Source: Moraxella nasicaprae
GTDB lineage: Bacteria > Pseudomonadota > Gammaproteobacteria > Pseudomonadales > Moraxellaceae
Length of the DNA stretch: 32,000 nucleotides
NCBI RefSeq assembly: GCF_025643275.1
Contig: NZ_CP089977.1
Location: forward strand, 2,010,001-2,042,000
Direction: 5' to 3'
The stretch's first letter is position 1; every line of letters begins with the position of its first letter. The notes beneath the pieces were generated by a model that searched no databases, had not been told where the DNA came from, and was given only the letters and a program-made list of their open reading frames with translations. This document shows, piece by piece, positions 18,062 to 32,000 of this stretch. The translations under genes were made by a program, and so were the position numbers.

Positions 18062-20005
18062 TTAAAAGCTCATCCCCAAACTTACACCACTGACCCAATC
18101 TTTGTTTGAAAAACCTGTGGGCTCACTAATTGCTTTTGAGGTGAAAACATCGTAATTAAAACTTAGGTGGGGGTTGTTTGTGTTTGGTGTGTATTGTCCT
18201 TTGATACCTATGGCAGCACCTGCTAGATGTTGTCCAAGCAATAGCTCATTTTGGCTTTTGTCGTGGTTGCTAACATAACCTGCATCCAATCCTAGATAGA
18301 TGGCATGGCTAGATTGGCTGTTTTGTGAGTTGTTTTGATTGGTTGTGGTGCTTTGTTTGGTTGTTTGTTGTTGATTTAGAAAGCTTGGATAAAAGCTGAT
18401 ATCTTGTCTTATCAAGATGCCATTATCCGCAGATAATGAACGCTCTCCATCAAAACCTCTGACGGTGTATCTGCCACCAATCGCCATTTTTAAATCTGGT
18501 GTTAGACTGTCAGTGGCGTATTGGGCTTTGAGTGTGGTGCTGTGGACAACGGGTAGTGGCTTATTTCTTATGATTGGATTGTATCTACTGGTTAGACCCA
18601 AGGTTAGCTGATAGATACCAACACGAGATGAGCCTTCATCAAACAGCTCTTCTGGCGATGGCAAGGCATTAAAAGCGGCGGTACCACGTTTATAAGAAAT
18701 ATCGGTGCTTAGGCTATGATTGGCTTGTTTGCCAAAAGCGGTCTCATGGCTAATGCCAAATAAATAACCTGCAGTTTTACGGGTTTGCACATCAATGGTC
18801 GTACCATCAATATCACTTTCTTGGGATTTGATATAGCCGCTAGTATATACATGGCTTTTACTGCGAGCATCTCTATGCACCAGATGAGATAATTTGGCGG
18901 TATATTGATTGGACTTACCGCCATAGACATAATCTTGGTTACTACCCGCCACAGTTTGATGGTAGGTGTAGTGATTGGCGTTGAGTTGTAATAAGCTGTT
19001 TTTAATGGGAATAACATAACCCATACTGTAATTCTTAGAGCCTTTGCTCTTATCAGACGGATAGTCTTTGTCATCATTGATTTGATTACCCAAATCTCGC
19101 CCAAAGCTAAGATAGAATAAATCATTATAGTTTGCCAGATTATCTAGGCTAAGTGTCGCCATGCCTTGATATTTGCCTGTGGATTTAGAGCCTGAATCAT
19201 CAATGCTTAGACTGCCACGAAGACGGCGGTGTTGGGCATAATCAATTAAAATATCACTAAAGCCAATGCCGTTACCAACAGGTTTATTGTTTTTATCATG
19301 ACCAATTGCTTGCAACCCATCAGATGGTGCAATCTTAAAATTGGCATCAGCACTTGGCACGCGTTTAAAGTTCTCAAGCGTGGTTTCCAAATCACGGATG
19401 TTTAACAGCTTACCTGATTGAGTGGTTAAGGCGGTGTCTAAGATAGCAGGATAAGCCATATTTGTCTGTTTAACATAGACAGGTACTTTACTATCGGCTG
19501 TATTGACCACCACCTGAGCAATCTTACCTGGGATTAAGGTTAATCTTAACTTCCCACCTGCCAAATTCTGATCAGCTACCATAATACGACTGGTGACATA
19601 GCCTTTGTCAATCAAGCGATTTTGCACACGAGTGGCAATGGCATTGATGTCAGCAACTGTCATGCACTTACCTAATACACTGTGATTACCCATGATTTCA
19701 GGCATGAGTGCAAAGCCAAGCTTGTCTGCAAAGATGGCATCATCAGCTGATAACACCGAATAGCTTATCTGATGAATATCAAAGCAAATGGCGTTATCTG
19801 CTACGGCTTGTTCTTGGGTTTGGGCAACCATATTGGCAGAAACAGCATCCACCACCACGCTTGGATTTGGCACTAATTGTTCAAGCAATGCCTGATTGCG
19901 AGCATCTTGGGTTTGGATTAGGGTTTGGTTGGCGGTGTTGGCAGAGACGGTGTTATGAACCAAAATTGCAATAATTGTGGTGGCAAGGATTGTTGGTCTA
20001 ATCAT
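18062..20005 (-). CDS. cdiB: Two-partner-secretion outer-membrane transporter (ShlB/FhaC/HecB family, CdiB/TpsB)
   Basis: 647 aa. Signal peptide MIRPTILATTIIAILVHNTVSA. POTRA-type block GKCMTVADINAIATRVQNRLIDKGYVTSRIMVADQNLAGGKLRLTLIPGKI. C-terminal beta-barrel with RYTVRGFDG and a terminal ...GMSF. Adjacent to and divergent from the large exoprotein. Confidence 0.92.
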   Translation of the reverse strand: MIRPTILATTIIAILVHNTVSANTANQTLIQTQDARNQALLEQLVPNPSVVVDAVSANMVAQTQEQAVADNAICFDIHQISYSVLSADDAIFADKLGFALMPEIMGNHSVLGKCMTVADINAIATRVQNRLIDKGYVTSRIMVADQNLAGGKLRLTLIPGKIAQVVVNTADSKVPVYVKQTNMAYPAILDTALTTQSGKLLNIRDLETTLENFKRVPSADANFKIAPSDGLQAIGHDKNNKPVGNGIGFSDILIDYAQHRRLRGSLSIDDSGSKSTGKYQGMATLSLDNLANYNDLFYLSFGRDLGNQINDDKDYPSDKSKGSKNYSMGYVIPIKNSLLQLNANHYTYHQTVAGSNQDYVYGGKSNQYTAKLSHLVHRDARSKSHVYTSGYIKSQESDIDGTTIDVQTRKTAGYLFGISHETAFGKQANHSLSTDISYKRGTAAFNALPSPEELFDEGSSRVGIYQLTLGLTSRYNPIIRNKPLPVVHSTTLKAQYATDSLTPDLKMAIGGRYTVRGFDGERSLSADNGILIRQDISFYPSFLNQQQTTKQSTTTNQNNSQNSQSSHAIYLGLDAGYVSNHDKSQNELLLGQHLAGAAIGIKGQYTPNTNNPHLSFNYDVFTSKAISEPTGFSNKDWVSGVSLGMSF

Positions 20006-20148: not shown

Positions 20149-20334
20149 ATGAACCGCATATATAAAACCGTCTTTAACAAATCCACACAGACTTGGATGG
20201 CGGTTTGTGAATATGCTCGTCGTGTTGGTTGTGGCGGTGCAAGTAGCACCAGCAAATCTGCGGCACGAGGCGTAGCGGGTTCTATTACTTTCTTATCCTT
20301 TGCAGTACTTATGGCTTTACAGTCAGCCCATGCA
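20149..20334 (+). other. Extended signal peptide region (ESPR) plus Sec signal of CdiA
   Basis: The MNRIYK..FNK...W.AV.E.A.R motif is typical of ESPR-bearing TPS/autotransporter proteins. It is followed by the hydrophobic core ITFLSFAVLMALQSAHA, with predicted cleavage after AHA (aa 62). Confidence 0.75.
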
Positions 20335-23300
20335 GGCACCCCCACCACCATCATCGCTGACTCATCTGCCCCTAAAAATCTACAACCCATCATCTTAAAT
20401 ACCGCAAGCGGCATCACCTCTGTGAATATTGCCACCCCCAATGCTCGTGGCTTATCCAATAACCATTACAGCCAGTTTGATGTCGGTAGCACAGGTGCTG
20501 TATTAAATAACAACCGTAAAGCAGTGGGTACCCAAATCGCAGGCTTTGTGGCAGCCAACCCTTTTATGGCTCGTGGCGAAGCCTCTACCATCTTAAACCA
20601 AATCAATTCCAATAATCCAAGTCATTTAAATGGCTTTGTTGAAGTGGCAGGTAAAAAGGCAGATGTCATCATTGCCAATCCCAATGGTCTTATCATCAAT
20701 GGTGCTGGCTTTATCAATGCTGGTAATGTCCATCTGGCAGCAGCAAATGCCCAAGTAAAACAAGGGCAATTATCAGCTTATCAAGTCGGCAATGGTGATA
20801 CTGGCAATATTCAAGTCAATGGCAAATTAAACCTACAAGGCACCGATTATGCTGCTCTCATCGCTAAAACCGCCCAAATCAATGATGAAATTTATGCAGG
20901 AAAACAGCTGGATGTTATCCTAGGTGAAAACCAAGTCAATCTTCAAAACGGTGATTTTACCAAGCTTAATGCCACCAATAAACAAACCCATGTATCATCT
21001 GCTAGCCAAACCACCAATAAAGAACAACAAGGCGTTGCCTTAGATATTTCATCATTGGGCGGAATGTATGCAGGTAAAATCCACCTTGTCGGTACAGACA
21101 AAGGCTTTGGGGTCAATAACCAAGGGGTCATCACAGCAACCGGCAATGGACAACAACTTGGCACAGGTACACTCACGCTAGATAGTCAAGGCAATCTTGT
21201 CAATACAGGCACCATGTCTGCTAAAGATAAACTTGCCATCAACACCCATGATAACACCACTCAAAACGATGGCACCTTGTTAAGTGAACAAGCTGATATC
21301 GCCATCAATACCGCAAGTCTTAATAACACAGGTGCCATTCACAGCACCCAAACCACCAAGATTGCAGCCAAACAAGCGATTGAAAACCTTGGCAGTGTCT
21401 ATGGCGGTGTTTTGCAAGTGGATACGGATAAGCTTAATAACACCGGCCAGCTTATCCAAACTGGTACAGGTAAGCTTGATATCACCACCAATACACTGAC
21501 CAACTCCGATAAAGCGGTTATCGGTCAAAGCTTGTATGGACAAACCATCATACCCACACCTTCTACCCCAAGCAGCGATCAAAGTGCTGGTAGCATTAGC
21601 AATACTCCTATACAGACAAGCACAACAACAGGTAATATCGCCACAAACCCAAATACGCAGACTTTAAACAAACCATCCACCCCAAACGCTAACGGTCATA
21701 TTACTGCCAGTCAGTCTTTGACTAACACAGGCAATCAAGCACTCATCACTGCCACAGGTGACATCAGCATCAATGCTGATAAAACCCATAACACCAAGCA
21801 AGCATCGATTGATGCCGCCACTTTAAACACCAACACTCTTGTCAATACCGACAGTAAAATCGCCTTAGATGATATTAATTGGCAATTGACTCGCTTTGAT
21901 AACAGCAAAGGTAGTATCACTGCCAAAGATGGTATGGTGATTGGCAGTGAATCTGCCATCATCAACACAGGTGGCAGCTTAACAAGCGGTGGCGATATGA
22001 CACTTATCGCCAAAGACAGGATTATCAATCAAGACGGCACCATTACCGCGGTCAAACAAGCAGATATTACTGCCAAAGAGGTGCAAAACGGCGGCAGCAT
22101 CACGGCTGATACACTTACCATCACCCAACAAGCCGACTACGCCCACACAGATCAAGATAAGCTTGTTGCCAATCGCTTAGCGTTTACAACAAGTGGTAAG
22201 CTGATTAACCAAAGCCAATTAACCGCAGGTCATGATTTGACACTGAACGCCAAACACATTGACAACAGCCAAACAGGTATCATCACCAGCGGCAATCACA
22301 CACAGATTACTAGCCAAACAAACATCACCAACCAAGGCTTAATCAATGGTGAAAATACACTCATCAAAGCCAAAAACACCATCAACAATCTTGCCGGTGG
22401 TCGTATCTATGGCACGCATCTTGCAATACAGGCTGATACGCTAAATAATACGCCAGCAAAAGCTGTCAACCAACAAACCAATCAAGAAAATGACCATCAC
22501 ACCGCCCCTGTCATCGCAGCCAGAGGGCGTCTGGATATCGGTGTTAATCACTTAAACAACAACCCCAATCCAGATAGAGCAGGTAAATTTAATAAAAACT
22601 TTGACAGTCAAGCTTTAATCACAAGTCTTGGCAGTCTGCACATCGGTGGTAGCCTAGATGACAACCATCACGCCACAGGCAAAGCACAGACGGTTATCAA
22701 TAAAGGGGCAACCATAGAGTCTGGTGGACAGATGCAAATTGCCACCAGCACCTTACTAAATACCAATGCCGACTTTAAAAAGCATACGGTCAAAGTGGAA
22801 GCCGAATCCGTTTATGGACAAACACTTTACCGCAACCGTGAGCAATCTGGAGTGCCTGCCACCCAAAAAAGCACCAACATAGCCGATTTGGGCAAAAAGC
22901 CCATGGCAGGTTTATTTGACTGCCCTAAAGGCAGTGAATGTATTGTCAATTATGATCACAACTCCACCATTTGGTCATACTTTAAGATTGAACCACCCAA
23001 ACAGCCTGTTCCAAACATCAAAGCCAAAGACCTGTTAGATGAACCTGACTTACCAAAAGGCGAGACCACTCAAAGCTGTGCCTTGGCGGGTGCAAACAAT
23101 CAAGCCTGTGCCCAATACAACAAAGATCTGGCGAATTACACCAAGGTCATGGGGCCATTATTAAAATGGGAAGAAGATAATGCTGCCTCCATTGAGGCAC
23201 TGGAGCTTGCCATTCGGGAGCATAACCGCCAATTTAATAAAAATAAAAGCGATGTGGATTTGGCGTTAAACATCTACACCACCGATGAAGCATATTTAGG

Positions 23301-26300
23301 TCCAACCAGCCGTAAAGGTGCACCAGATGGTGCTTTGTATGTCAAAGATGTCAGTGGTAACTTTTATCGCCTCACTGAAGAGGTGGATGTCATTACCACT
23401 GACTTTGTCGTCTATGAAGATAAAACTCTATCTTCTGACCCTGCTCGTATGGTATCAGGAGAAAATCTTATCATCCATGGCGACACCTTAATTAACGATA
23501 AAAGCCAAATGAATGCGGGTAATGGCTTTGCAATCATTGGTGATACCGTGATTCAAACACCTGACAATGGCTTGCATGGTGAAAAAACCAAAGTCACCGA
23601 AAATGGTCGCTTTACCAGATATAGCGTATTTGCCTCAGGAATTAACCGCCACAAGCGCAAAGCAACTGGCGGTGGTAGCTTTACTCAATCCTTTGCACCA
23701 CTAGCAACGTATGAACTTCCCATCTTAAACGCTACCATCAATACCACACCAAGTAGCACCAAGATTGATGAGCTAGCCACAGGCAATGATACTTCTGTGA
23801 TTGTTGATGTTAAAGACAGTACCATCACCTTACCAACTTCAGCCCTCTACATCATCAACGCTGACAATCCCAATCTACCACTAATTCAAACCGACCCTGC
23901 ATTCACCAATTACAAACAGTGGCTCTCCTCTGATTATATGCTAAAAGCCCTACAATCAGACCCAAATCACATCCACAAACGCCTCTCTGATGGTTATGGT
24001 GAACAACAGCGTATTAAAGATCAGTACTATCTACTGACAGGCAGACACATCAACACTGATTACCGCAGTCATGAAGATGCTTATAAAACCTTGATGGATA
24101 ATGGCATCACGGCAGCCAAACAGTTTAACTACACACTTGGCACGGCACTCACGCCTGAGCAGATGGCAACTCTCACCACGGACATCGTTTGGCTTATCAA
24201 ACAGCCCATCACGGTTGTCACCAAAGACAAAGATGGCAATAGCATCAGCAAAACCCAAGACGCCTTAGTGCCTAAGCTGTATCTGCGTTCTGCCAATGCA
24301 GATACTGGCACACTGAGTCCTGATGGCAGATACAGTGCCGTCTCAGCCAGAAGCATTGACATGCAGCTGACTGGCAATCTTGACAATAATGGCAACATCA
24401 TTGCCAAAGACACCGCAAACATCAATGCAAACAATGTCACCAATGACGGCGGTGTTTATGGTAACTTTGTCGCTGTCACAGCAGATAACACCATTGCCAA
24501 TCATGGCACCATGTATGCAAACAGTGCCATGAGGCTAAGTGCTGGCAATAACATCATCAACCAAAGCCAAACAGCTACCCATCACAATAAACAAGGGCAA
24601 AGCGCTTCATCTAACACCGCCATCACACGCATCGCCACCATCCGTGTAAGCGATGGATTAAAAGACCAAACAGATGACAATGGCAATCCATTAACCACCC
24701 TAAGTCTGCGTGGCAATCAGATCATCTATCAAGGTGCCGCATCAGACAACGCAGGTGGTAGTACCCACATGACCGCCAAAAACGGCATTAACATCACCAC
24801 CATCACCACAAGCAATCACATCAATGCTGTCGCTGATGAGAATAACTACTTTAACTACAGCCAAAGCACCGATGTGGGTTCAACCATCACCAGTCATGGC
24901 AACTTAACGATAGCCACAACAGGCAAAGATGCTGACATCAACATCAAAGGTTCAAGCCTACAATCAGACGGCATGACTGCTGTTATTGGGACAGGCGACA
25001 TTAGCATCACCGAAGGTCGTGCTACCCAAAGCTTGGATACAGCAAGTAAATTTACCAACAAAGGACTTGTTAGCAAAAAAACCACTCAAACCGCCTATCA
25101 GATGGACAGCAATACCAGCATTCAAAGTACGGTGGGTGGTGAGACTGTACTGATGAAATCAGGTAGGAATATGCAGGTTGTGACAACCAATGTACTTGCC
25201 GACAAAGACATTCTGCTTGCCTCAGGTGGCAATATGACCATTGCCAGTGCTGCTAATACACAAAGTATGCACGAATATTCACAGGTGGATAAAAAAGGCT
25301 TATTTACCACTTCGCCAACTTCTGCCACATTGGGTAAACAACGCACTCAAAATCAAGCAGATGCCATGCAGACCACCTATACAGGCTCGCTGATTGGTAC
25401 TACAGGAGGTAATGTTCGCCTAGTAAGTAATGACAGTCTTGCCATCACCAATAGCGATGTCATTGCCAAAAAAGATGGTGCCAACACCAATACAGGCAAT
25501 ATCTACATCCAAGCCACTGATGCCACCATCCAAAGCCAAAACACCATCAGCAACAACAGCCATCGCTTTGCCCAAAAAACCACAGGAGTGACTGCCAGCG
25601 TCTCTAGCAGTCTTGTTAGCGAGGTTCAAAGCCTAGAAACGCTAAAAGAGTCTGTTAATGACACCGACTCTCGCAAAGCTAAATTGGCTGGCACTTTAGC
25701 GGCAGCTTCCAAGGTTAAAACGCTTATCAATAACCTAAACAATAAAGACTTGGGTAGTCTAAGGGCTCAAGCCACTATTGGCTCACAAAGCACCAAGAGC
25801 CAAACCACAAGCCATCAAGAAACTAATGATGCTGCTAACCTTTTGGCTCAAAATAATCTGATCGTCAACCTTAAAGGCAAAGGTGCGGATTCGGATTTGA
25901 CTGTCATAGGTAGCAATCTTACAGTGGGCAACAACTTCTACCAATCGGTAGAAGGCGATGTCATCTACCAGGCCTCAACACAAACTGATACCACAAACAG
26001 CCAAAACAGCAGTAAAGGTTGGGGCGTGGGTATCTATGCCAGCACTCAGATAGGTGGTGGTCAATCCAATCACGGCTTTACCATCAATGCCAACAAAGCA
26101 AAAGGCAATAGTACTGAAACAACCACCACCCACACCAATACCCAAGTCACTGTTGGCGGTACAACCATCAATGACATTGGTGGCAATCTTATCCTAGATG
26201 GTGCCAATCTTGATACCAAGCACCTAACTGGTACAGTTGGCGGTGATTTGATTGTCAAAAGCCGTCAAGACACCTATCAATACACCCATGATCAAAAACA

Positions 26301-28035
26301 AGCAGGATTTAGTGCCGATGTTGGCTTTAATGGCAAACCCCAAAGCATAAGCATCAATGGTGGTAAAACCGATGTAGATGCCGATTATGCCCAAGTCACC
26401 CGCCAATCAGGCATCAAAGCCAAAGAGTCCACCCTAATCGTACAAGGACAAGGTAAGTTTACTGGTGGCTATCTCATCACCGATGCCGGTAAAAACCAAA
26501 CCCAGTTTGCCCAAGGTATCCAAACCCAAGACATTCACAACCATCTAGATTATGAAGGTGATGCCATCAGTGTCGGCATTGGTATTGGTGTAGACACCAG
26601 CAATCCAAATGGCAAAGCAAAACCTGCCCTACAAGGCCTAGGCTATGGTAAAATAGACCCAACTCATAAAACCAGTACCACCCATTCTGCCATCACAGAC
26701 CAAGCAGGGCTTAGCCATATTAATACAGACAACTTCAAACAAGCAGAAGTTCAACATGAGCTTAACCAAATCATCACCAATGATTTTAATAAAGAGCAAG
26801 TGCTTAAAGAGTTAAATGCTCAGGTGAATATTACTACTGAGTTTGGGAGAGAAGCTCCAAAAAGAGTGGCGGAGTTTGCCGACAACCAAGCCTTTAAACT
26901 TATTCAAAAGCTAGATGAACTTAATGATAAAAACATTGACATTGCTTCTGATGAGTATCAAAATACCATCAAAGAGATTGATAAGTGGAGCGAAGGTGGG
27001 GTTTATCGTGTGGCGTTGCATACGGCTGTTGGTGCTTTGGGGACAGGCACTATCGAAGGAGCAATATCAGCAGGTGCAACCGCCTACACCATTCCAAAGA
27101 TAGACGAATACCTAAAAGAACAAGGCTTTGATGAAACCACAAGACAAACCGCCTTGCTTACCTTATCAGCAGGCATTGGTGCGACTGTTGGTGGCGATAC
27201 TGCAAGCACTGCCAATAATGCTGGGCAGGTGCAGTGGAATTATTTGAGTCATAAGGAGAACGAAAGATTGAGAGAATTAAAAAAAGAGAAAGCTGGACTA
27301 TCTAACGCCTACGGCAATTGTGTATCTCAAAGATGTGCAGAAATTACACGAGAAATAAAAGTGCTTGAAGATCTCAGTAAACAACGAGATAAGGCGTTTG
27401 ATAAAGCTTATACAGACTGCCGTGCAGGCAAGGATTGTAATCAGTTTTATTATTTGCATGTCATTCAAAGAAGAGACTGGAATAAGGATGCAGAAGAATT
27501 ATTTAAGGTAAATCGCAGTGATTGGAAGCTGATGGAGGATTATCAAAATGCCTTTCACAACTACAATGCAAATGGCATTCCAGAAAAATTACCTAATGGT
27601 AACTACCGATACAAAAAATTTGTTCACAATAACGGGCAAATGGAAATAATTATTGATACAAAAGACGGTATTTTAAGTGATGATGACTACACTAGAATTG
27701 TAAGAGATCCAACCAATGCTGGAACATTTAATTATTACGCCCCCAGTGATGCTAGTGGTCATAAATTATATGATGTAGATCCGTATACAAACTTTGGGAA
27801 TGGTAAGGGCGACAAAACAACTCTATCAAACAGAAAAAATGTCATGCTACGCCTACCAGTCCCCTATACAAATTACACAGTTCCAATTGGAACTTCTGGT
27901 TTTTGGACAGGAAATCTACCAGGAAAAACCACAAACCCAAAAACAATGGGGGCAAATAGAATAACAAATAATGCCGAACGTAGCTTTAACGCATCACAAG
28001 ATTTTTGTGAGAATAATAAGGAGGATTGCAAATGA
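20149..28035 (+). CDS. cdiA: CdiA/TpsA filamentous-hemagglutinin-type exoprotein with a C-terminal polymorphic toxin (2628 aa)
   Basis: Extended signal peptide MNRIYKTVFNKSTQTWMAVCEYARR...ALQSAHA. The TPS domain has NNHYSQFDV and ANPNGLIING (NPNG at 20677-20688). Long FHA-type beta-helix repeats follow. A conserved central block reads HKRLSDGYGEQQRIKDQYYLLTG...LTTDIVWL...VPKLYL. The pretoxin region ends in VQWN (27229-27240), followed by a 264-aa variable C-terminus. Confidence 0.95.
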   Translation: MNRIYKTVFNKSTQTWMAVCEYARRVGCGGASSTSKSAARGVAGSITFLSFAVLMALQSAHAGTPTTIIADSSAPKNLQPIILNTASGITSVNIATPNARGLSNNHYSQFDVGSTGAVLNNNRKAVGTQIAGFVAANPFMARGEASTILNQINSNNPSHLNGFVEVAGKKADVIIANPNGLIINGAGFINAGNVHLAAANAQVKQGQLSAYQVGNGDTGNIQVNGKLNLQGTDYAALIAKTAQINDEIYAGKQLDVILGENQVNLQNGDFTKLNATNKQTHVSSASQTTNKEQQGVALDISSLGGMYAGKIHLVGTDKGFGVNNQGVITATGNGQQLGTGTLTLDSQGNLVNTGTMSAKDKLAINTHDNTTQNDGTLLSEQADIAINTASLNNTGAIHSTQTTKIAAKQAIENLGSVYGGVLQVDTDKLNNTGQLIQTGTGKLDITTNTLTNSDKAVIGQSLYGQTIIPTPSTPSSDQSAGSISNTPIQTSTTTGNIATNPNTQTLNKPSTPNANGHITASQSLTNTGNQALITATGDISINADKTHNTKQASIDAATLNTNTLVNTDSKIALDDINWQLTRFDNSKGSITAKDGMVIGSESAIINTGGSLTSGGDMTLIAKDRIINQDGTITAVKQADITAKEVQNGGSITADTLTITQQADYAHTDQDKLVANRLAFTTSGKLINQSQLTAGHDLTLNAKHIDNSQTGIITSGNHTQITSQTNITNQGLINGENTLIKAKNTINNLAGGRIYGTHLAIQADTLNNTPAKAVNQQTNQENDHHTAPVIAARGRLDIGVNHLNNNPNPDRAGKFNKNFDSQALITSLGSLHIGGSLDDNHHATGKAQTVINKGATIESGGQMQIATSTLLNTNADFKKHTVKVEAESVYGQTLYRNREQSGVPATQKSTNIADLGKKPMAGLFDCPKGSECIVNYDHNSTIWSYFKIEPPKQPVPNIKAKDLLDEPDLPKGETTQSCALAGANNQACAQYNKDLANYTKVMGPLLKWEEDNAASIEALELAIREHNRQFNKNKSDVDLALNIYTTDEAYLGPTSRKGAPDGALYVKDVSGNFYRLTEEVDVITTDFVVYEDKTLSSDPARMVSGENLIIHGDTLINDKSQMNAGNGFAIIGDTVIQTPDNGLHGEKTKVTENGRFTRYSVFASGINRHKRKATGGGSFTQSFAPLATYELPILNATINTTPSSTKIDELATGNDTSVIVDVKDSTITLPTSALYIINADNPNLPLIQTDPAFTNYKQWLSSDYMLKALQSDPNHIHKRLSDGYGEQQRIKDQYYLLTGRHINTDYRSHEDAYKTLMDNGITAAKQFNYTLGTALTPEQMATLTTDIVWLIKQPITVVTKDKDGNSISKTQDALVPKLYLRSANADTGTLSPDGRYSAVSARSIDMQLTGNLDNNGNIIAKDTANINANNVTNDGGVYGNFVAVTADNTIANHGTMYANSAMRLSAGNNIINQSQTATHHNKQGQSASSNTAITRIATIRVSDGLKDQTDDNGNPLTTLSLRGNQIIYQGAASDNAGGSTHMTAKNGINITTITTSNHINAVADENNYFNYSQSTDVGSTITSHGNLTIATTGKDADINIKGSSLQSDGMTAVIGTGDISITEGRATQSLDTASKFTNKGLVSKKTTQTAYQMDSNTSIQSTVGGETVLMKSGRNMQVVTTNVLADKDILLASGGNMTIASAANTQSMHEYSQVDKKGLFTTSPTSATLGKQRTQNQADAMQTTYTGSLIGTTGGNVRLVSNDSLAITNSDVIAKKDGANTNTGNIYIQATDATIQSQNTISNNSHRFAQKTTGVTASVSSSLVSEVQSLETLKESVNDTDSRKAKLAGTLAAASKVKTLINNLNNKDLGSLRAQATIGSQSTKSQTTSHQETNDAANLLAQNNLIVNLKGKGADSDLTVIGSNLTVGNNFYQSVEGDVIYQASTQTDTTNSQNSSKGWGVGIYASTQIGGGQSNHGFTINANKAKGNSTETTTTHTNTQVTVGGTTINDIGGNLILDGANLDTKHLTGTVGGDLIVKSRQDTYQYTHDQKQAGFSADVGFNGKPQSISINGGKTDVDADYAQVTRQSGIKAKESTLIVQGQGKFTGGYLITDAGKNQTQFAQGIQTQDIHNHLDYEGDAISVGIGIGVDTSNPNGKAKPALQGLGYGKIDPTHKTSTTHSAITDQAGLSHINTDNFKQAEVQHELNQIITNDFNKEQVLKELNAQVNITTEFGREAPKRVAEFADNQAFKLIQKLDELNDKNIDIASDEYQNTIKEIDKWSEGGVYRVALHTAVGALGTGTIEGAISAGATAYTIPKIDEYLKEQGFDETTRQTALLTLSAGIGATVGGDTASTANNAGQVQWNYLSHKENERLRELKKEKAGLSNAYGNCVSQRCAEITREIKVLEDLSKQRDKAFDKAYTDCRAGKDCNQFYYLHVIQRRDWNKDAEELFKVNRSDWKLMEDYQNAFHNYNANGIPEKLPNGNYRYKKFVHNNGQMEIIIDTKDGILSDDDYTRIVRDPTNAGTFNYYAPSDASGHKLYDVDPYTNFGNGKGDKTTLSNRKNVMLRLPVPYTNYTVPIGTSGFWTGNLPGKTTNPKTMGANRITNNAERSFNASQDFCENNKEDCK
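25990..26835 (+). repeat. Direct repeat copy 1 (846 bp), inside cdiA
   Basis: Matches 29384-30229 at an offset of 3394 bp. The encoded 282 aa are identical in both supplied translations. The antisense track ORFs 26070..26258 / 29464..29652 and 26224..26406 / 29618..29800 are also identical. Identity starts at a25990/a29384 (the preceding bases t and c differ) and ends at t26835/t30229 (the next bases a and c differ). Confidence 0.95.
27241..28032 (+). other. CdiA-CT toxin region of the primary cdiA (264 aa after VQWN); no family assigned
   Basis: Begins YLSHKENERLRELKKEK, immediately after the VQWN motif that occupies the VENN position. Contains six Cys (NCVSQRC, TDCRAGKDC, FCENNKEDC). I recognise no catalytic motif. 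Confidence 0.7.
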
Positions 28036-28133
28036 GAAGTAGTAAAGTATTTTTTTTACTAATCTGTATCTTTTTATTTGTTTTGATTGTATATAATATA
28101 TTATCAAATCATGTAATTAGAACTTTTTATTAA
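28032..28133 (+). CDS. Micro-ORF 1: 33-aa single-pass membrane peptide, candidate cognate immunity (cdiI) for the primary toxin
   Basis: The ATG overlaps the cdiA TGA (ATGA at 28032-28035). A strong AAGGAGG Shine-Dalgarno at 28018-28024 sits 7 nt upstream. My translation is MRSSKVFFLLICIFLFVLIVYNILSNHVIRTFY. The ORF is below the 60-aa cutoff of the track. Confidence 0.5.
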   Translation: MRSSKVFFLLICIFLFVLIVYNILSNHVIRTFY

Positions 28134-28156
28134 ATAGTACTACTGCTGTCAATTAA

Positions 28157-28240
28157 GGAATCAAAATTGCCCATGATTCTTTTGACGAATCTGAAAAATT
28201 ATGTGAAGCAAATAAGAGTAATTGTTATCATGAAAAATAA
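28157..28240 (+). pseudogene. Fossil 3' tail of a homologous cdiA-CT (module 2)
   Basis: My translation GIKIAHDSFDESEKLCEANKSNCYHEK* aligns with the primary toxin tail GANRITNNAERSFNASQDFCENNKEDCK* (A-x2-SF-x2-S-x3-CE-x-NK-x2-C). There is a stop immediately upstream and no start codon. Confidence 0.6.
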
Positions 28241-28343
28241 TTTATTTTTTATTTTTTTGTTTTTTGTTTTTATTCTGTTAATTATTTTTTCAAAGACTAT
28301 TATTGCTTATTTCTTAGTTTCATTTGGGTATGTTACTGTTTGA
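28230..28343 (+). CDS. Micro-ORF 2: 37-aa single-pass membrane peptide (orphan immunity candidate)
   Basis: The ATG at 28230 overlaps the end of fossil tail 2, the same arrangement as micro-ORF 1 with cdiA. My translation is MKNNLFFIFLFFVFILLIIFSKTIIAYFLVSFGYVTV. The Shine-Dalgarno is weak. Confidence 0.4.
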   Translation: MKNNLFFIFLFFVFILLIIFSKTIIAYFLVSFGYVTV

Positions 28344-28405
28344 TTTTACCTCTACATGATTCACATTAATAATCAAAAGTGTTTTCGAAATTAATGTTAA
28401 TATAG

Positions 28406-28546
28406 ATTTTATCAAAAACAGGAAAACCGCAGGCAATAGGGGCGGGTAGAATTATTAGTGAAAAATAAGACAAGCTAAAAAATAAGTTTGATAAGTCTCA
28501 AAAAATTTGTGAGAATGATTATGTTCGATGTGAAGAAAATGATTAG
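28406..28546 (+). pseudogene. Fossil 3' tail of a homologous cdiA-CT (module 3), with an internal stop
   Basis: My translation ILSKTGKPQAIGAGRIISEK*DKLKNKFDKSQKICENDYVRCEEND* aligns with the primary tail PGKTTNPKTMGANRITNNAERSFNASQDFCENNKEDCK*. There is an in-frame TAA at 28466-28468. Confidence 0.6.
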
Positions 28547-28637
28547 ATATTTTTGCATTGCTTTTGCAATCGGTGGGGTTTTATGGATCATACTTTACTC
28601 TTTAGCTGTGATAGGATTACTACATAGCAACTTATGA
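28539..28637 (+). CDS. Micro-ORF 3: 32-aa single-pass membrane peptide (40 aa if started at 28515), orphan immunity candidate
   Basis: The ATG at 28539 overlaps the end of fossil tail 3. My translation is MIRYFCIAFAIGGVLWIILYSLAVIGLLHSNL. In-frame upstream ATGs lie at 28515 and 28521. Its TGA overlaps the ATG of the next ORF (ATGA at 28634-28637). Confidence 0.4.
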   Translation: MIRYFCIAFAIGGVLWIILYSLAVIGLLHSNL

Positions 28638-29140
28638 ATAATCTTGGGTCTCTAGCACGGAAGAAAATTGGGAAGATGCTAATGAGAATTAGGATAAGAA
28701 GATTTATTCTTATAACAGCCATACTAATTATTCCCAGTTATTATCTGCTAAGCATGTATACCAGAGGATTGGATATAAGAAAGGATTCTATTTTGGGTGA
28801 AGCAATAGCGGATATCCCTTTCAAATATAATCCATCTAGGAATCTAGCAGTAACTCAATCAATTTCCATAAAAAATGGCAAATTGGTACATTATGTATAT
28901 ATTTTCAAATTTCATGGTGTATTTTATAATAAGAAACTTATTTTCAGCTTCAAGGGGGATGCTACATGCGGTGATTATAATTCAGAAAATGTTAATTCAT
29001 GGATAAATTGGCATGGTGATAGCAAATTAAAAATCAATATTAACAGCAATACGTTACAGAAAGTGTTAATAAAGGAAGAGAATTATGATAATGTTCAAAT
29101 TGATTACTTATATTATTTCGAATCCTGTAATAGGATATAG
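28634..29140 (+). CDS. Hypothetical membrane-anchored protein (168 aa), possible orphan immunity or accessory protein
   Basis: Track ORF. Basic N-terminus, one TM helix (RRFILITAILIIPSYYLLSMY), then a roughly 120-aa N/K/I/Y-rich domain. Extremely AT-rich and coupled by ATGA to micro-ORF 3. I recognise no family. Confidence 0.55.
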   Translation: MNNLGSLARKKIGKMLMRIRIRRFILITAILIIPSYYLLSMYTRGLDIRKDSILGEAIADIPFKYNPSRNLAVTQSISIKNGKLVHYVYIFKFHGVFYNKKLIFSFKGDATCGDYNSENVNSWINWHGDSKLKININSNTLQKVLIKEENYDNVQIDYLYYFESCNRI

Positions 29141-29212
29141 CACGTATAATGTGTATACATAATATTATTAAAATAGCCCGTAGATACCATCTCCCAACCC
29201 CAAAGTCAAACC

Positions 29213-29362
29213 CTAAATTGCCTGAATTTGTGGTTGGTAGGGTTTTTGGTGCTTAACCACACCAAAACAGATTTGTACCAATTTACGCATACAAGCATAT
29301 AGTACGGCAGGATGTGTGTCACACACCATTAATTTAAGCTGTTTTAGGATTGTGTTGCACGC
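29213..29362 (-). pseudogene. IS110-family transposase, C-terminal remnant (5'-truncated)
   Basis: The C-terminal 49 aa of the minus track ORF 29213..29539 read ..NTILKQLKLMVCDTHPAVLYACMRKLVQICFGVVKHQKPYQPQIQAI*. This resembles the conserved IS110/IS1111-type C-terminus (..NP.LK.FY.RL...GK..KVALVACMRKLL...FGVLK...P..) as I remember it. The rest of that ORF is antisense to the cdiA repeat and is not real coding sequence. Confidence 0.5.
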
Positions 29363-29383
29363 ACTACCACATGCTATGCCAAC

Positions 29384-30229
29384 ACCACAAACAGCCAAAA
29401 CAGCAGTAAAGGTTGGGGCGTGGGTATCTATGCCAGCACTCAGATAGGTGGTGGTCAATCCAATCACGGCTTTACCATCAATGCCAACAAAGCAAAAGGC
29501 AATAGTACTGAAACAACCACCACCCACACCAATACCCAAGTCACTGTTGGCGGTACAACCATCAATGACATTGGTGGCAATCTTATCCTAGATGGTGCCA
29601 ATCTTGATACCAAGCACCTAACTGGTACAGTTGGCGGTGATTTGATTGTCAAAAGCCGTCAAGACACCTATCAATACACCCATGATCAAAAACAAGCAGG
29701 ATTTAGTGCCGATGTTGGCTTTAATGGCAAACCCCAAAGCATAAGCATCAATGGTGGTAAAACCGATGTAGATGCCGATTATGCCCAAGTCACCCGCCAA
29801 TCAGGCATCAAAGCCAAAGAGTCCACCCTAATCGTACAAGGACAAGGTAAGTTTACTGGTGGCTATCTCATCACCGATGCCGGTAAAAACCAAACCCAGT
29901 TTGCCCAAGGTATCCAAACCCAAGACATTCACAACCATCTAGATTATGAAGGTGATGCCATCAGTGTCGGCATTGGTATTGGTGTAGACACCAGCAATCC
30001 AAATGGCAAAGCAAAACCTGCCCTACAAGGCCTAGGCTATGGTAAAATAGACCCAACTCATAAAACCAGTACCACCCATTCTGCCATCACAGACCAAGCA
30101 GGGCTTAGCCATATTAATACAGACAACTTCAAACAAGCAGAAGTTCAACATGAGCTTAACCAAATCATCACCAATGATTTTAATAAAGAGCAAGTGCTTA
30201 AAGAGTTAAATGCTCAGGTGAATATTACT
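29384..30229 (+). repeat. Direct repeat copy 2 (846 bp), the 5' part of the orphan cdiA-CT
   Basis: See copy 1 (25990-26835). Confidence 0.95.
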
Positions 30230-31483
30230 CAAGCATTTGATGCTGAACGCCGTGCCATTAGAAGTGAATTTGCTAAAAAAGCAGAAGACCATCGCAAACA
30301 AGCAGAAAGGCTATCAGATGACGACCCAAGAAAGACAGAGCTTGTACAAGAGGCCCAAAAGATTGAACAAAACCTAAGACTCTTCGATGGCATCACCTCT
30401 GCCTTGTATGCTCCTAATTCAAATGGTATTATAGGTGATGTGGCAAGAGCAGCAAGCCCAGAGCTTGCTTATCGGATTGGTCAAGAATTTAAAGAAAACA
30501 AAGCCCTAAACCAAACAGACAATGGTAACAGACCAGAAGAGCAATCAGCCAATCATCTACTGGCTCATGCCATACTTGGTGCTGCCACAAGCTATGCCAC
30601 AGGTAATGACATCGCCACAGGTGCCGTCTCTGCGGTAAGCAATGAGGCTGTCGCCCCAGTATTGTCAAATTACCTATATGGCACCAAAGAAACAAAAACA
30701 CTTAGCCAAGAACAAAAAGACACCATCACAAGCATTCTAAACCTAGCCACTGCTACAACCATCTACACAGCAACTGATGGCAGCACCACTGATGCAGTAA
30801 GTGGGGCTGAGATTGGGAAGGTTGGGGTGGAGTGGAATGCGGATACTATACGTCTAGATGGCAAAGATGCTCATGATAGAGTATTTGAAGCAGAAGCTAA
30901 ACGATTGTTTCCTAATAATCCTGAGTTGCAGCAGCAATATATTGCTCAACAAAATAAAAAAATTGGTGAAATTAGTTTAGCAATCATAATGACCGCTGTG
31001 CCAACCGAAATTTATGAGGTTGCACCAATCGGCAAAGGGTTTGGTATTATTGCAAAGGGAAGCAAGAAAGTTGTTGGTCTTTTTAAGAGCAAAGGAGATG
31101 CTGAAAAGGTATTGGAAGGAGCCAAGAAGCAATCTAAAGCTGATAACAACATATATAGAGATGATAGTTATGGCTATACTTGGTCGCAAGGAAGACCGCG
31201 AGATTTTAATCGAAATTTAGCCACTCACTGGAATAAGCATAAGCATGAATTTCCCGAGTTTCGGTCTCAAAACGATTATTATAGATTTGCAAGAAATTTT
31301 GTTGACAATCCTCCTGCTGGAACTCTAACTAAGGTTAGAGCTAATGGAGATATGGTATTTTATCAACCGTCAACAAATACTTTTGCTATCAAGGATAAAA
31401 GTGGTAGCATTATGACGCTATTTAAACCTGATGTTACAAAACATAAGTATGCTACAAATTTGGAGTATTTTCATGCACAATAG
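29420..31483 (+). CDS. cdiA: Orphan cdiA-CT: 5'-truncated CdiA C-terminal fragment carrying an alternative pretoxin region and toxin
   Basis: The frame is open from 29348 (stop at 29345-29347) with no credible start or RBS, no signal peptide and no TPS domain. The track start at 29420 is an internal GTG. The first 282 aa are identical to CdiA aa 1948-2229. The sequence then diverges (QAFDAERRAIRSEF...), reaches a DUF637/PT-like region (ANHLLAHAILGAATSYATG...) ending in VEWN (30827-30838), and finishes with a 214-aa distinct C-terminus. Confidence 0.85.
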   Translation: MGIYASTQIGGGQSNHGFTINANKAKGNSTETTTTHTNTQVTVGGTTINDIGGNLILDGANLDTKHLTGTVGGDLIVKSRQDTYQYTHDQKQAGFSADVGFNGKPQSISINGGKTDVDADYAQVTRQSGIKAKESTLIVQGQGKFTGGYLITDAGKNQTQFAQGIQTQDIHNHLDYEGDAISVGIGIGVDTSNPNGKAKPALQGLGYGKIDPTHKTSTTHSAITDQAGLSHINTDNFKQAEVQHELNQIITNDFNKEQVLKELNAQVNITQAFDAERRAIRSEFAKKAEDHRKQAERLSDDDPRKTELVQEAQKIEQNLRLFDGITSALYAPNSNGIIGDVARAASPELAYRIGQEFKENKALNQTDNGNRPEEQSANHLLAHAILGAATSYATGNDIATGAVSAVSNEAVAPVLSNYLYGTKETKTLSQEQKDTITSILNLATATTIYTATDGSTTDAVSGAEIGKVGVEWNADTIRLDGKDAHDRVFEAEAKRLFPNNPELQQQYIAQQNKKIGEISLAIIMTAVPTEIYEVAPIGKGFGIIAKGSKKVVGLFKSKGDAEKVLEGAKKQSKADNNIYRDDSYGYTWSQGRPRDFNRNLATHWNKHKHEFPEFRSQNDYYRFARNFVDNPPAGTLTKVRANGDMVFYQPSTNTFAIKDKSGSIMTLFKPDVTKHKYATNLEYFHAQ

Positions 31484-31718
31484 CAATAAATTCAATAGCT
31501 GTAAGATATGTGGTTACTATGAAAGCGGTTGGTTTCCATGGGGTGTTGATGGTAGAACGCCATCTTTTGATATTTGCCCCCAATGTAATGTGCAGTTTGG
31601 CTATGAAGATTGTAACGATGAGGCTATAAAAAGTTATAGAAAAGTTTATGAAGAGATGATTAAATATGACCAAAATAAGAAAAATTTCCATACCTATATC
31701 CATGGATGCTCTAAATAG
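31473..31718 (+). CDS. cdiI: Candidate immunity protein (cdiI) for the orphan toxin; small zinc-ribbon, CPCC-like cysteine-rich protein (81 aa)
   Basis: The ATG at 31473 overlaps the last codons of the orphan cdiA-CT. GGAG at 31462-31465 sits 7 nt upstream. The protein MHNSNKFNSCKICGYYESGWFPWGVDGRTPSFDICPQCNVQFGYEDCND... has a CxxC...CxxC pair. The track start at 31431 is probably over-extended. Confidence 0.65.
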   Translation: MHNSNKFNSCKICGYYESGWFPWGVDGRTPSFDICPQCNVQFGYEDCNDEAIKSYRKVYEEMIKYDQNKKNFHTYIHGCSK

Positions 31719-31792
31719 ATTAAATTACAATATCTGCGAAACCCAATAAAATCAATGGGTTGCATAATAATGATGGGTTACGCTATCGCTAA

Positions 31793-32000
31793 CCCAGCCT
31801 ACGGGCTGAAAAGAAATGTGAAGAACATGTTCAAAAATACGATAAAATTTCTGCAGAGCAAGACGAGGACTTACGTAAAACTTGTTCAAGCAATCCAAAT
31901 AATGTTGAGTGCCATCGTATGATGGAAGAGGCTTTGGAGTATGTGGGACGGAACAGAAATCATTATGGAAAGGCAAGCGATATCCAAGATTCGACCAAAA
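31793..32000 (+). pseudogene. Possible further orphan toxin fragment, open to the window end
   Basis: A frame is open from 31793 to the window end with no start codon at its beginning. My translation is PSLRAEKKCEEHVQKYDKISAEQDEDLRKTCSSNPNNVECHRMMEEALEYVGRNRNHYGKASDIQDSTK. This charged, helical, Cys-paired composition resembles the segment just after VQWN in the primary CdiA-CT (..CVSQRCAEITREIKVLEDLSKQRDKAFDKAYTDCRAGKDC..). Confidence 0.3.

Follow-up and report, generated by a model that had tools for sequence, protein, structure and literature searches.

A locus for contact-dependent growth inhibition (CDI) is found in a 32,000-nucleotide stretch of the Moraxella nasicaprae genome (NCBI RefSeq assembly GCF_025643275.1, contig NZ_CP089977.1, positions 2,010,001 to 2,042,000 of the forward strand), which is referred to here as the window and numbered from its first nucleotide. 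It comprises a cdiB gene divergent from cdiA and, downstream of the latter, a truncated cdiA-like open reading frame (ORF) that ends in its own C-terminal (CT) toxin region and overlaps the start of an 81-aa ORF encoding a protein with four knuckle cysteines (Cys4). As a whole, we explain the region best, and with good confidence, as an orphan cdiA-CT/cdiI cassette downstream of a complete cdiB-cdiA locus. The constituents of such a cassette were all found: cdiB and cdiA upstream, an 845-bp repeat of cdiA, a PT-VENN domain, a distinct CT and the 81-aa ORF. The features are as follows, with the evidence for each in brackets.

18062..20005, minus strand: cdiB-type TpsB transporter, context of the CDI locus (Pfam ShlB 1.1e-76, POTRA_2, POTRA_3)
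20149..28035, plus strand: full-length cdiA, 2628 aa (ORF list; 845-bp perfect repeat in common with the orphan)
29384..30228, plus strand: homology arm that repeats cdiA 25990-26834 perfectly and in direct orientation, FHA-2/pre-toxin-proximal (repeat search, 100% identity)
30229..30838, plus strand: orphan-specific pre-toxin region with VEWN, a VENN variant, at its end (Pfam PT-VENN aa 426-473, E value (E) 7.4e-6)
30839..31135, plus strand: first ~100 aa of the CT region, presumed to serve cytoplasm entry/translocation (position in the general CdiA-CT architecture)
31136..31483, plus strand: toxin domain of the 8EY4_A type with a predicted colicin-D-like BECR fold (phmmer, profile search, AlphaFold2 (AF2), Foldseek)
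H603 (31226), K606 (31235), H607 (31238), E610 (31247), T666 (31415) and K669 (31424), plus strand: candidate catalytic residues (conserved columns)
31430-31480, plus strand: class-B tail DVTKHKYATNLEYFHAQ (within the toxin domain)
31462..31465, plus strand: GGAG Shine-Dalgarno for the candidate immunity gene, inside the toxin coding sequence (7 nt before the ATG, read from the sequence)
31473..31718, plus strand: 81-aa Cys4 putative zinc-ribbon immunity candidate, class B, a remote CPCC relative (homologues, hhalign, AF2, synteny)
C10/C13 (31500, 31509) and C35/C38 (31575, 31584), plus strand: putative zinc-knuckle cysteines, CKIC...CPQC (sequence)
D46 at 31608, plus strand: FGYED acidic loop past the second knuckle (sequence)

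The pair at the end of this list had been singled out in an earlier note as an orphan toxin with an H-W-N-K-H-K-H-E-F motif and a coupled small ORF. Every feature described there is present where it was placed, and the C-terminal sequence quoted for the toxin is correct. With 3797 relatives of the toxin, 255 of the small protein and conserved synteny in 49 of 50 loci, the pair lies far beyond chance.

The orphan ORF (29420-31483, 687 codons, GTG start) begins within the cdiA repeat and has an intact frame. Pfam Fil_haemagg_2 matches its residues 6-92, and its sliding-window identity to cdiA is 1.0 to about 26834/30228 and ~0.3 thereafter. The full-length cdiA is taken as the effector that is expressed, and the orphan could recombine into it. 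The 845-bp perfect repeat (25990-26834/29384-30228) suggests a recent duplication or gene-conversion event and constitutes a ready substrate for moving the orphan CT into cdiA. VEWN occupies orphan residues 470-473 (30827-30838), and the first codon of the CT region is at 30839. Near ~27300, the main CdiA reads ..GQVQWNYLSHKEN.. where the VEWN equivalent may sit, and the two sequences together suggest V(E/Q)WN as a possible variant in this lineage. Two Moraxella nonliquefaciens proteins (P0006, P0007) are 95% identical at the VEWN junction and over the first ~40 CT residues and then end (..QQNKKNW, stop), which suggests that a related species retains the same CT in truncated, remnant form. The entry or translocation role of the N-terminal ~100 aa of the CT is presumed by position, following the general CdiA-CT architecture as outlined in a review (PMC9086364). 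This part contains a hydrophobic stretch (ISLAIIMTAVPTEIYEVAPIGKGFGII), is partly common to the closest toxin homologue (P0002) and has no Pfam match. The guanine-plus-cytosine (GC) content is 0.36 in the CT region and 0.34 in the immunity region, versus ~0.44 elsewhere in the window.

The toxin domain, ~90 aa in length, bears the HWNKHKHEF motif and ends in ...NLATHWNKHKHEFPEFRSQNDYYRFARNFVDNPPAGTLTKVRANGDMVFYQPSTNTFAIKDKSGSIMTLFKPDVTKHKYATNLEYFHAQ followed by the stop codon. The hidden Markov model (HMM) and structure-prediction searches that the earlier note had proposed assigned no Pfam or NCBIfam family to the CT region, its toxin part or the 81-aa protein; they matched the toxin to chain A of PDB entry 8EY4 and predicted a nuclease-like fold for it. 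In phmmer searches of PDB sequences, this chain ('PT-VENN domain-containing protein', 88 aa) was matched over 73 residues at E 5.6e-21, and a profile of the toxin family retrieved it at 3e-49. The entry, titled 'Contact-dependent growth inhibition toxin-immunity protein complex from E. coli O32:H37', was released on 2023-11-08. The toxin domain is a member of the family of this E. coli O32:H37 CdiA-CT. When close homologues were combined into a profile, 3797 proteins were recovered at E<=1e-3, with annotations such as filamentous haemagglutinin/VENN pre-toxin, PT-HINT (Rhs-type) and S-type pyocin. None of them has a Pfam domain over the toxin part, so this polymorphic-toxin domain is widespread but missing from the Pfam catalogue.

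Most of the motif highlighted in the earlier note is conserved in this family: H603, W604, K606, H607, E610, F611 and P612 (ORF numbering) recur, whereas the third His, H609, is replaced by G, K, S or T in relatives. The last strand carries a second conserved motif, T666-x-F-[KR]669-P. Across the family residues (H, W, K-H, E-F-P, PP.G.L, R.NG, Y.P, N.F, T.F.P), most of the conserved columns checked in alignments A1 and A2 match in the window toxin, which departs from the family at columns 92 (I for P) and 95 (L for M).

A likeness to RNase-type toxin termini of the BECR or colicin-D-like kind, which the earlier note had raised, is borne out at the level of the predicted fold. The AF2 model of the toxin, built on a 62-sequence alignment (mean predicted local distance difference test (pLDDT) 86), consists of a helix at 24-38, a helix at 45-57, four strands and two short tail helices. 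When this predicted structure was compared with the PDB using Foldseek, the best match was 8EY4_A (E 1.3e-9, target-normalized template-modeling score (TMt) 0.88, root-mean-square deviation (rmsd) 1.5 A). The second place is held by the tRNase domains of colicin D alone (5ZNM, 1TFO, 1TFK and 1V74; E 1.4-2.0e-3, probability 1.0, query-normalized score (TMq) 0.49-0.52), and all matches past these have E>=0.07. The Tox-ColD signature is given in PMC3482391 as [KH]K, Hxx[ED], [ST] and [TS]xxK, with K607, K608, H611, D614 and S677 in colicin D; the catalytic His611 lies on an alpha-helix of a basic tRNA-binding surface, according to PMC9990079. Compared at the level of motifs, helix 1, with H603-W-N-K606-H607-K-H-E610, and the last strand, with T666-L-F-K669, fit this pattern. 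The toxin domain is also basic (isoelectric point (pI) 9.5). Judging from the modeled fold, the toxin is probably a colicin-D-like metal-independent RNase, for which tRNA would be the most likely substrate.

The 81-aa ORF, with its ATG at 31473, overlaps the last 11 nt of the toxin gene (ATGCACAATAG). A longer reading of 95 aa from ATG 31431 is available; the 81-aa start is favored because homologues begin at a conserved MH(K/N/S). An 81-aa member of the same 90% cluster (P0279) is recorded on 29 contigs from NCBI and other sources. The proposal of a translationally coupled immunity candidate gains support from the 11-nt overlap, the ribosome-binding site, the synteny described below and the co-crystallization of a sister class of small protein with a homologous toxin (8EY4 chains I and A). 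We infer from the sequence that the 81-aa gene is the cognate immunity gene of the orphan toxin.

While a word-indexed search recovered two close homologues of the small protein only, exhaustive HMMER searching yielded 255 representative relatives at E<=1e-3. Their consensus, CRVCG......PWGEDG..PSF.IC.CCGVEFGYED.....I...R..W, includes invariant C10, C13, C35 and D46, with C38, G14, W23, G24 and G43 conserved in at least 90% of the alignment. The 81-aa protein has no match to Pfam Cys_rich_CPCC (PF14206) at E<=10, nor does any of 61 members of its family at E<=0.1. As a positive control, the 72-aa protein encoded next to the closest toxin homologue (locus L002, toxin P0002) matches PF14206 at 1.2e-15. 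This protein also matches 8EY4 chain I and 8EY3 (~4e-13), both of which are named 'Cys_rich_CPCC domain-containing protein', so that the partner of the crystallized toxin is a CPCC protein. When the window-type family (alignment A3) was compared using hhalign with CPCC proteins from toxin loci (A4), the two aligned with a probability of 96.2% and E 2.2e-9 over 56 columns, encompassing both CxxC knuckles and the C-terminal helix. The resemblance to CPCC-type proteins recorded in the earlier note has thus turned out to be remote homology: as judged by profile comparison, the 81-aa protein is a distant CPCC homologue outside the Pfam family. Its family is termed class B here and canonical CPCC proteins class A.

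In the AF2 model of the small protein, residues 11-60 have pLDDT >=90, isolated beta-bridges flank the knuckles and a helix spans 49-65. The model is consistent with a zinc ribbon plus helix, and the Cys4 pattern by itself leads us to infer zinc binding. The putative zinc-ribbon part is acidic (pI 5.2). Matches of the 81-aa protein and a Gilliamella homologue to PDB sequences by phmmer were rejected as chance zinc-finger and rubredoxin similarities. Among class-B relatives, P0207 (363 aa) carries a class-B zinc-ribbon domain in C-terminal fusion to a DUF4259 domain (Pfam 8.1e-9), and P0130 and P0131 are among several relatives with two domain copies; these may be poly-immunity architectures. 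Other multi-copy matches weighed as candidates for such architectures, such as P0177 and P0208, were discarded, as these two are choline-binding/GH25 and Por-secretion-tail proteins whose matches are probably spurious.

The pairing of the two genes was surveyed in 48 loci obtained by a pattern scan with one genome per species, together with two further loci (L001, L002) and the window. The loci derive from Proteobacteria, Actinobacteria, Planctomycetes, Chlamydiae, Bacteroidetes, Firmicutes and other phyla. A Cys4 ORF lies directly 3' of the toxin in 49 of 50 toxin-homologue loci, usually overlapping its stop codon by 4-15 nt, and the lone exception (L047) sits on a 1.8-kb contig. The partner belongs to class A in 32 loci and to class B in 17. 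Class-B partners always accompany a toxin with the long tail ..KP[DN]PxxHG[YF]x[TS]NL[DE]YF[NH]AQ, whereas class-A partners always accompany a tail that is shorter by seven residues, ..KPxxGxxYWN[KR]Q. Tail type equals immunity class in 49/49 loci. The toxin core does not split in this manner, with mean identities of 55.5% within B, 59.4% within A and 56.4% between A and B.

The window illustrates how tail and immunity gene behave relative to the core. Its toxin core is nearest to those of two class-A-paired toxins, from L002 (79%) and Moraxella cuniculi (L005, 74%). The short tail of the L002 toxin, P0002, reads KDKEKYWNAQ. At the DNA level, identity to L002 is 79% over 295 nt up to the FKP codons (~31430) and 43% beyond, whereas the class-B relative L051 maintains 84% through both tail and immunity gene. 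This sharp break on one side and continuity on the other indicate that tail and immunity gene behave as one exchangeable 3' cassette. The long tail is modeled as two short helices (100-103 and 108-114, pLDDT ~92) and, given this confidence, could be a structured recognition element. A tentative extension, which we rate as possible though doubtful, is that the last ~17 toxin residues are a swappable immunity-class tag, exchanged together with the immunity gene just past the FKP codons, with recognition separate from the catalytic core. No description of modular tail-tag specificity for CDI toxins was found in the literature searched. The toxin end, [NH]-A-Q-stop, and the immunity start, M-H-[KNS], share nucleotides in different frames (window 31469-31483 and its equivalents in class-B loci), which accounts for some of the conservation at the two protein ends and imposes a mutual constraint.

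Individual loci add to this picture. In Formosimonas limnophila (L015 3309-3846) and Serratia plymuthica (L018 1609-2059), a short-tail toxin gene, a class-A CPCC gene and a class-B gene stand in tandem. Both immunity classes can therefore share one locus, and the second could be an orphan immunity gene. The window's own module recurs in degraded form in Moraxella marmotae (L055 1158-2559, GCA_042436635.1), where a toxin C-terminal fragment is fused to a frameshifted class-B immunity remnant (P0005) within an array of small ORFs that includes a CPCC gene (1158-1394).

Several observations weigh against an orphan cassette that encodes a colicin-D-like tRNase and its immunity protein. The link of the toxin to colicin D is structural only, since the toxin-family profile fails to retrieve colicin D from PDB sequences; Pfam Colicin_D (PF11429) has no match at E<=1 in the orphan ORF or the 214-aa CT region, and the structural similarity is moderate (TMq ~0.5, rmsd 4 A). 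The literature searched on 8EY4 contained no evidence of RNase activity, substrate or zinc binding. Several CDI tRNases need a target-cell cofactor, and the toxin could instead be a BECR RNase core that depends on one or that acts on rRNA, on mRNA or in a ribosome-dependent manner like RelE/HigB. Such a target is, in our estimation, unlikely: BECR members cleave diverse RNAs (PMC9990079) and weak Foldseek matches extend to the HigB toxins 7AWK and 5YCL (E 0.08-0.6), but past 8EY4 only the tRNase domains of colicin D reach E near 1e-3, and helix 1 (K-H-x-x-E) and the last strand (T-x-x-K) carry motifs that resemble those of the Tox-ColD signature. For the small protein, the Foldseek comparison of its model with the PDB returned no match, 8EY4_I and 8EY3 included, which may stem from the near absence of regular secondary structure in the ribbon. 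Four class-B representatives were also examined with the immunity gene as starting point: one adjoins a long-tail toxin (L061), and the other three stand alone with no adjacent toxin. Standalone placement is common for orphan immunity genes, and these class-B genes leave room for other roles of the domain. A nucleic-acid-binding or regulatory zinc ribbon that merely adjoins the toxin and has no immunity role would account for the lack of a Pfam family and of a structural match in the PDB, as well as for those class-B members that lie in housekeeping neighborhoods or carry an unrelated fused domain such as DUF4259. We nonetheless regard it as highly improbable, given the overlapping start and ribosome-binding site inside the toxin gene, a Cys4 ORF in the same position in 49/50 loci across phyla, the perfect covariation of small-protein class with toxin tail, and the co-crystallization of the homologous CPCC class with a homologous toxin in an entry titled as a 'toxin-immunity protein complex'. 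The association of tail and immunity class could, for its part, reflect physical linkage alone, as the tail lies <50 nt from the immunity start codon.

The cassette also lacks an obvious independent start or secretion signal, so that the orphan toxin may be silent unless recombined into cdiA. Carried further, this leads to an alternative in which the orphan toxin is a silent, decaying remnant and the immunity gene alone is functional, guarding against toxin-deploying neighbors. The orphan ORF starts in the cdiA repeat with a GTG only and no signal peptide, its counterpart in M. marmotae (P0005/L055) is frameshifted in both toxin and immunity gene, the M. nonliquefaciens proteins P0006 and P0007 are truncated ~40 aa past VEWN, and standalone class-B immunity genes are frequent. 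Against this stand the intact 687-codon frame, the presence of the family-conserved residues and the 100% identity of the 845-bp arm; an intact frame and a perfect arm are the arrangement expected of a recombination-ready orphan. A silent remnant is therefore a real but doubtful prospect, and the recombination-ready cassette remains the preferred reading.

For this cassette, the following mechanism is proposed. Recombination across the 845-bp arm would bring the cassette into the expressed cdiA, and the ~100-aa N-terminal CT domain would mediate entry after delivery. The C-terminal domain would then cleave RNA, probably tRNA, in a metal-independent manner, with H607 on helix 1 as the putative general base and K606, E610, T666 and K669 assisting. 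The 81-aa protein would coordinate zinc via C10, C13, C35 and C38, bind the basic toxin 1:1 and block substrate access, presenting its acidic FGYED loop. Class-specific recognition may involve the toxin C-terminal tail, as the seven-residue tail insertion co-occurs perfectly with class-B immunity, and tail and immunity gene would move as one 3' cassette.

Additional ORFs surround the cassette. The region between the cdiA stop codon and the orphan (28036-29383) is very AT-rich (GC 0.30) and contains, besides two small hydrophobic ORFs (28167-28343, 28488-28637), a 168-aa ORF (28634-29140) with no Pfam or NCBIfam match. One ORF of this region is presumably the cdiI of the main CdiA-CT (27400-28032), which itself has no Pfam match. 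On the 3' side of the immunity gene, an open frame on the plus strand (31721-32000, frame of 31721) exits the end of the window (..EKKCEEHVQKYDKISAEQDEDLRKTCSSNPNNVECHRMMEEALEYVGRNRNHYGKASDIQDSTK) and may begin a further orphan fragment or another gene. A megablast search of 29000-32000 against plasmids gave no match. A promoter and terminator scan of 28000-32000, in which promoters scored no better than shuffles, was not used.

A cysteine-rich, presumably metal-binding immunity protein was already known for this toxin family from 8EY4 chain I and 8EY3. No relevant paper was found in the literature searched on 8EY4, 8EY3, CPCC or zinc-ribbon CDI immunity. The earlier note had considered a metal-binding immunity protein unusual for a CDI module. 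This view stands in so far as the terms zinc, metal-binding and cysteine led to no such protein in the 2022 CDI structural review (PMC9086364), and a term search of the CASP14 paper likewise gave no zinc-ribbon CdiI. It does not hold for 8EY4-type toxins, for which a Cys4 partner is the rule and for which a complex with such a partner has been in the PDB since November 2023 (8EY4). New relative to catalogued knowledge are the class-B immunity family, for which no Pfam model, structure or paper was found, the long-tail toxin sub-variant and the association of tail with immunity cassette.

The cassette in the window is of a normal orphan CDI kind, though of a type that is under-annotated, and its practical message is modest. 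The toxin domain is widespread, occurring on CdiA, Rhs/PT-HINT and S-pyocin scaffolds in many phyla, but neither Pfam nor NCBIfam has a model for it and the literature searched yielded no paper on it. The two families of its partners are both predicted Cys4 zinc ribbons. Recognition of class B, whose 255 representative clusters are currently labeled 'hypothetical', would let annotators assign many orphan immunity genes, and the perfect association of tail with class offers a direct handle on how toxin-immunity specificity is encoded.

Among known systems, the closest is the CdiA-CT/CdiI pair of E. coli O32:H37 (8EY4; immunity protein alone, 8EY3). Its toxin is homologous to that of the window (about 52-55% identity over 73 residues), shares the motifs H-W-x-K-H-x-x-E-F-P, GTLTK, NGD and TMFKP, and is likewise C-terminal to a VENN-type motif in CdiA. 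In both systems, a small protein serves as partner, and its two CxxC knuckles precede an acidic loop. The differences lie at the toxin's C-terminus and in the partner. The window toxin has a tail longer by seven residues (..KPDVTKHKYATNLEYFHAQ, compared with ..KPEKGIEYWNKQ in 8EY4) and, unlike 8EY4, belongs to an orphan cassette. Relative to the CPCC protein of 8EY4, the window partner displays CKIC instead of CPCC, a longer inter-knuckle loop with PWGxDG and FGYED in place of WEDD, and it lacks the GGAN motif and membership in Pfam CPCC. More generally, Cys_rich_CPCC proteins (PF14206) resemble class B in size (~65-90 aa), in their two CxxC knuckles with an acidic motif next, in their C-terminal helix and in their position immediately downstream of the same toxin family; the signature motifs differ, and each class pairs with a different toxin tail.

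Colicin D (1V74, 1TFO, 1TFK, 5ZNM; PF11429) offers the comparison in fold. Like the model of the window toxin, it displays a BECR alpha+beta arrangement of helix followed by four-stranded antiparallel sheet and a basic surface; judged by motif, the two would also have in common a first-helix His flanked by Lys with an acidic residue three positions on, and an alcohol residue and Lys in the last strand. Colicin D itself cleaves the anticodon loops of tRNA-Arg between positions 38 and 39. Colicin D has no detectable sequence homology to the window toxin by Pfam or family profile, and the template-modeling score is ~0.5. The partners differ as well: the window immunity protein is a putative Cys4 zinc ribbon, unlike the ImmD fold of colicin D, which is tRNA-mimicking according to the title of Graille et al. 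2004. Delivery also differs, with CDI, Rhs or pyocin scaffolds in the toxin family and dedicated translocation domains in colicin D itself.

With respect to genetic organization, the window cassette corresponds to the known orphan cdiA-CT/cdiI modules, in which a truncated cdiA downstream of the main cdiBAI carries pre-VENN homology and its own immunity gene. Poole et al. reportedly described such modules in E. coli EC93 and EC869 in 2011. The arrangement is the same in principle, and the homology arm of the window is unusually clean (845 bp, 100%).

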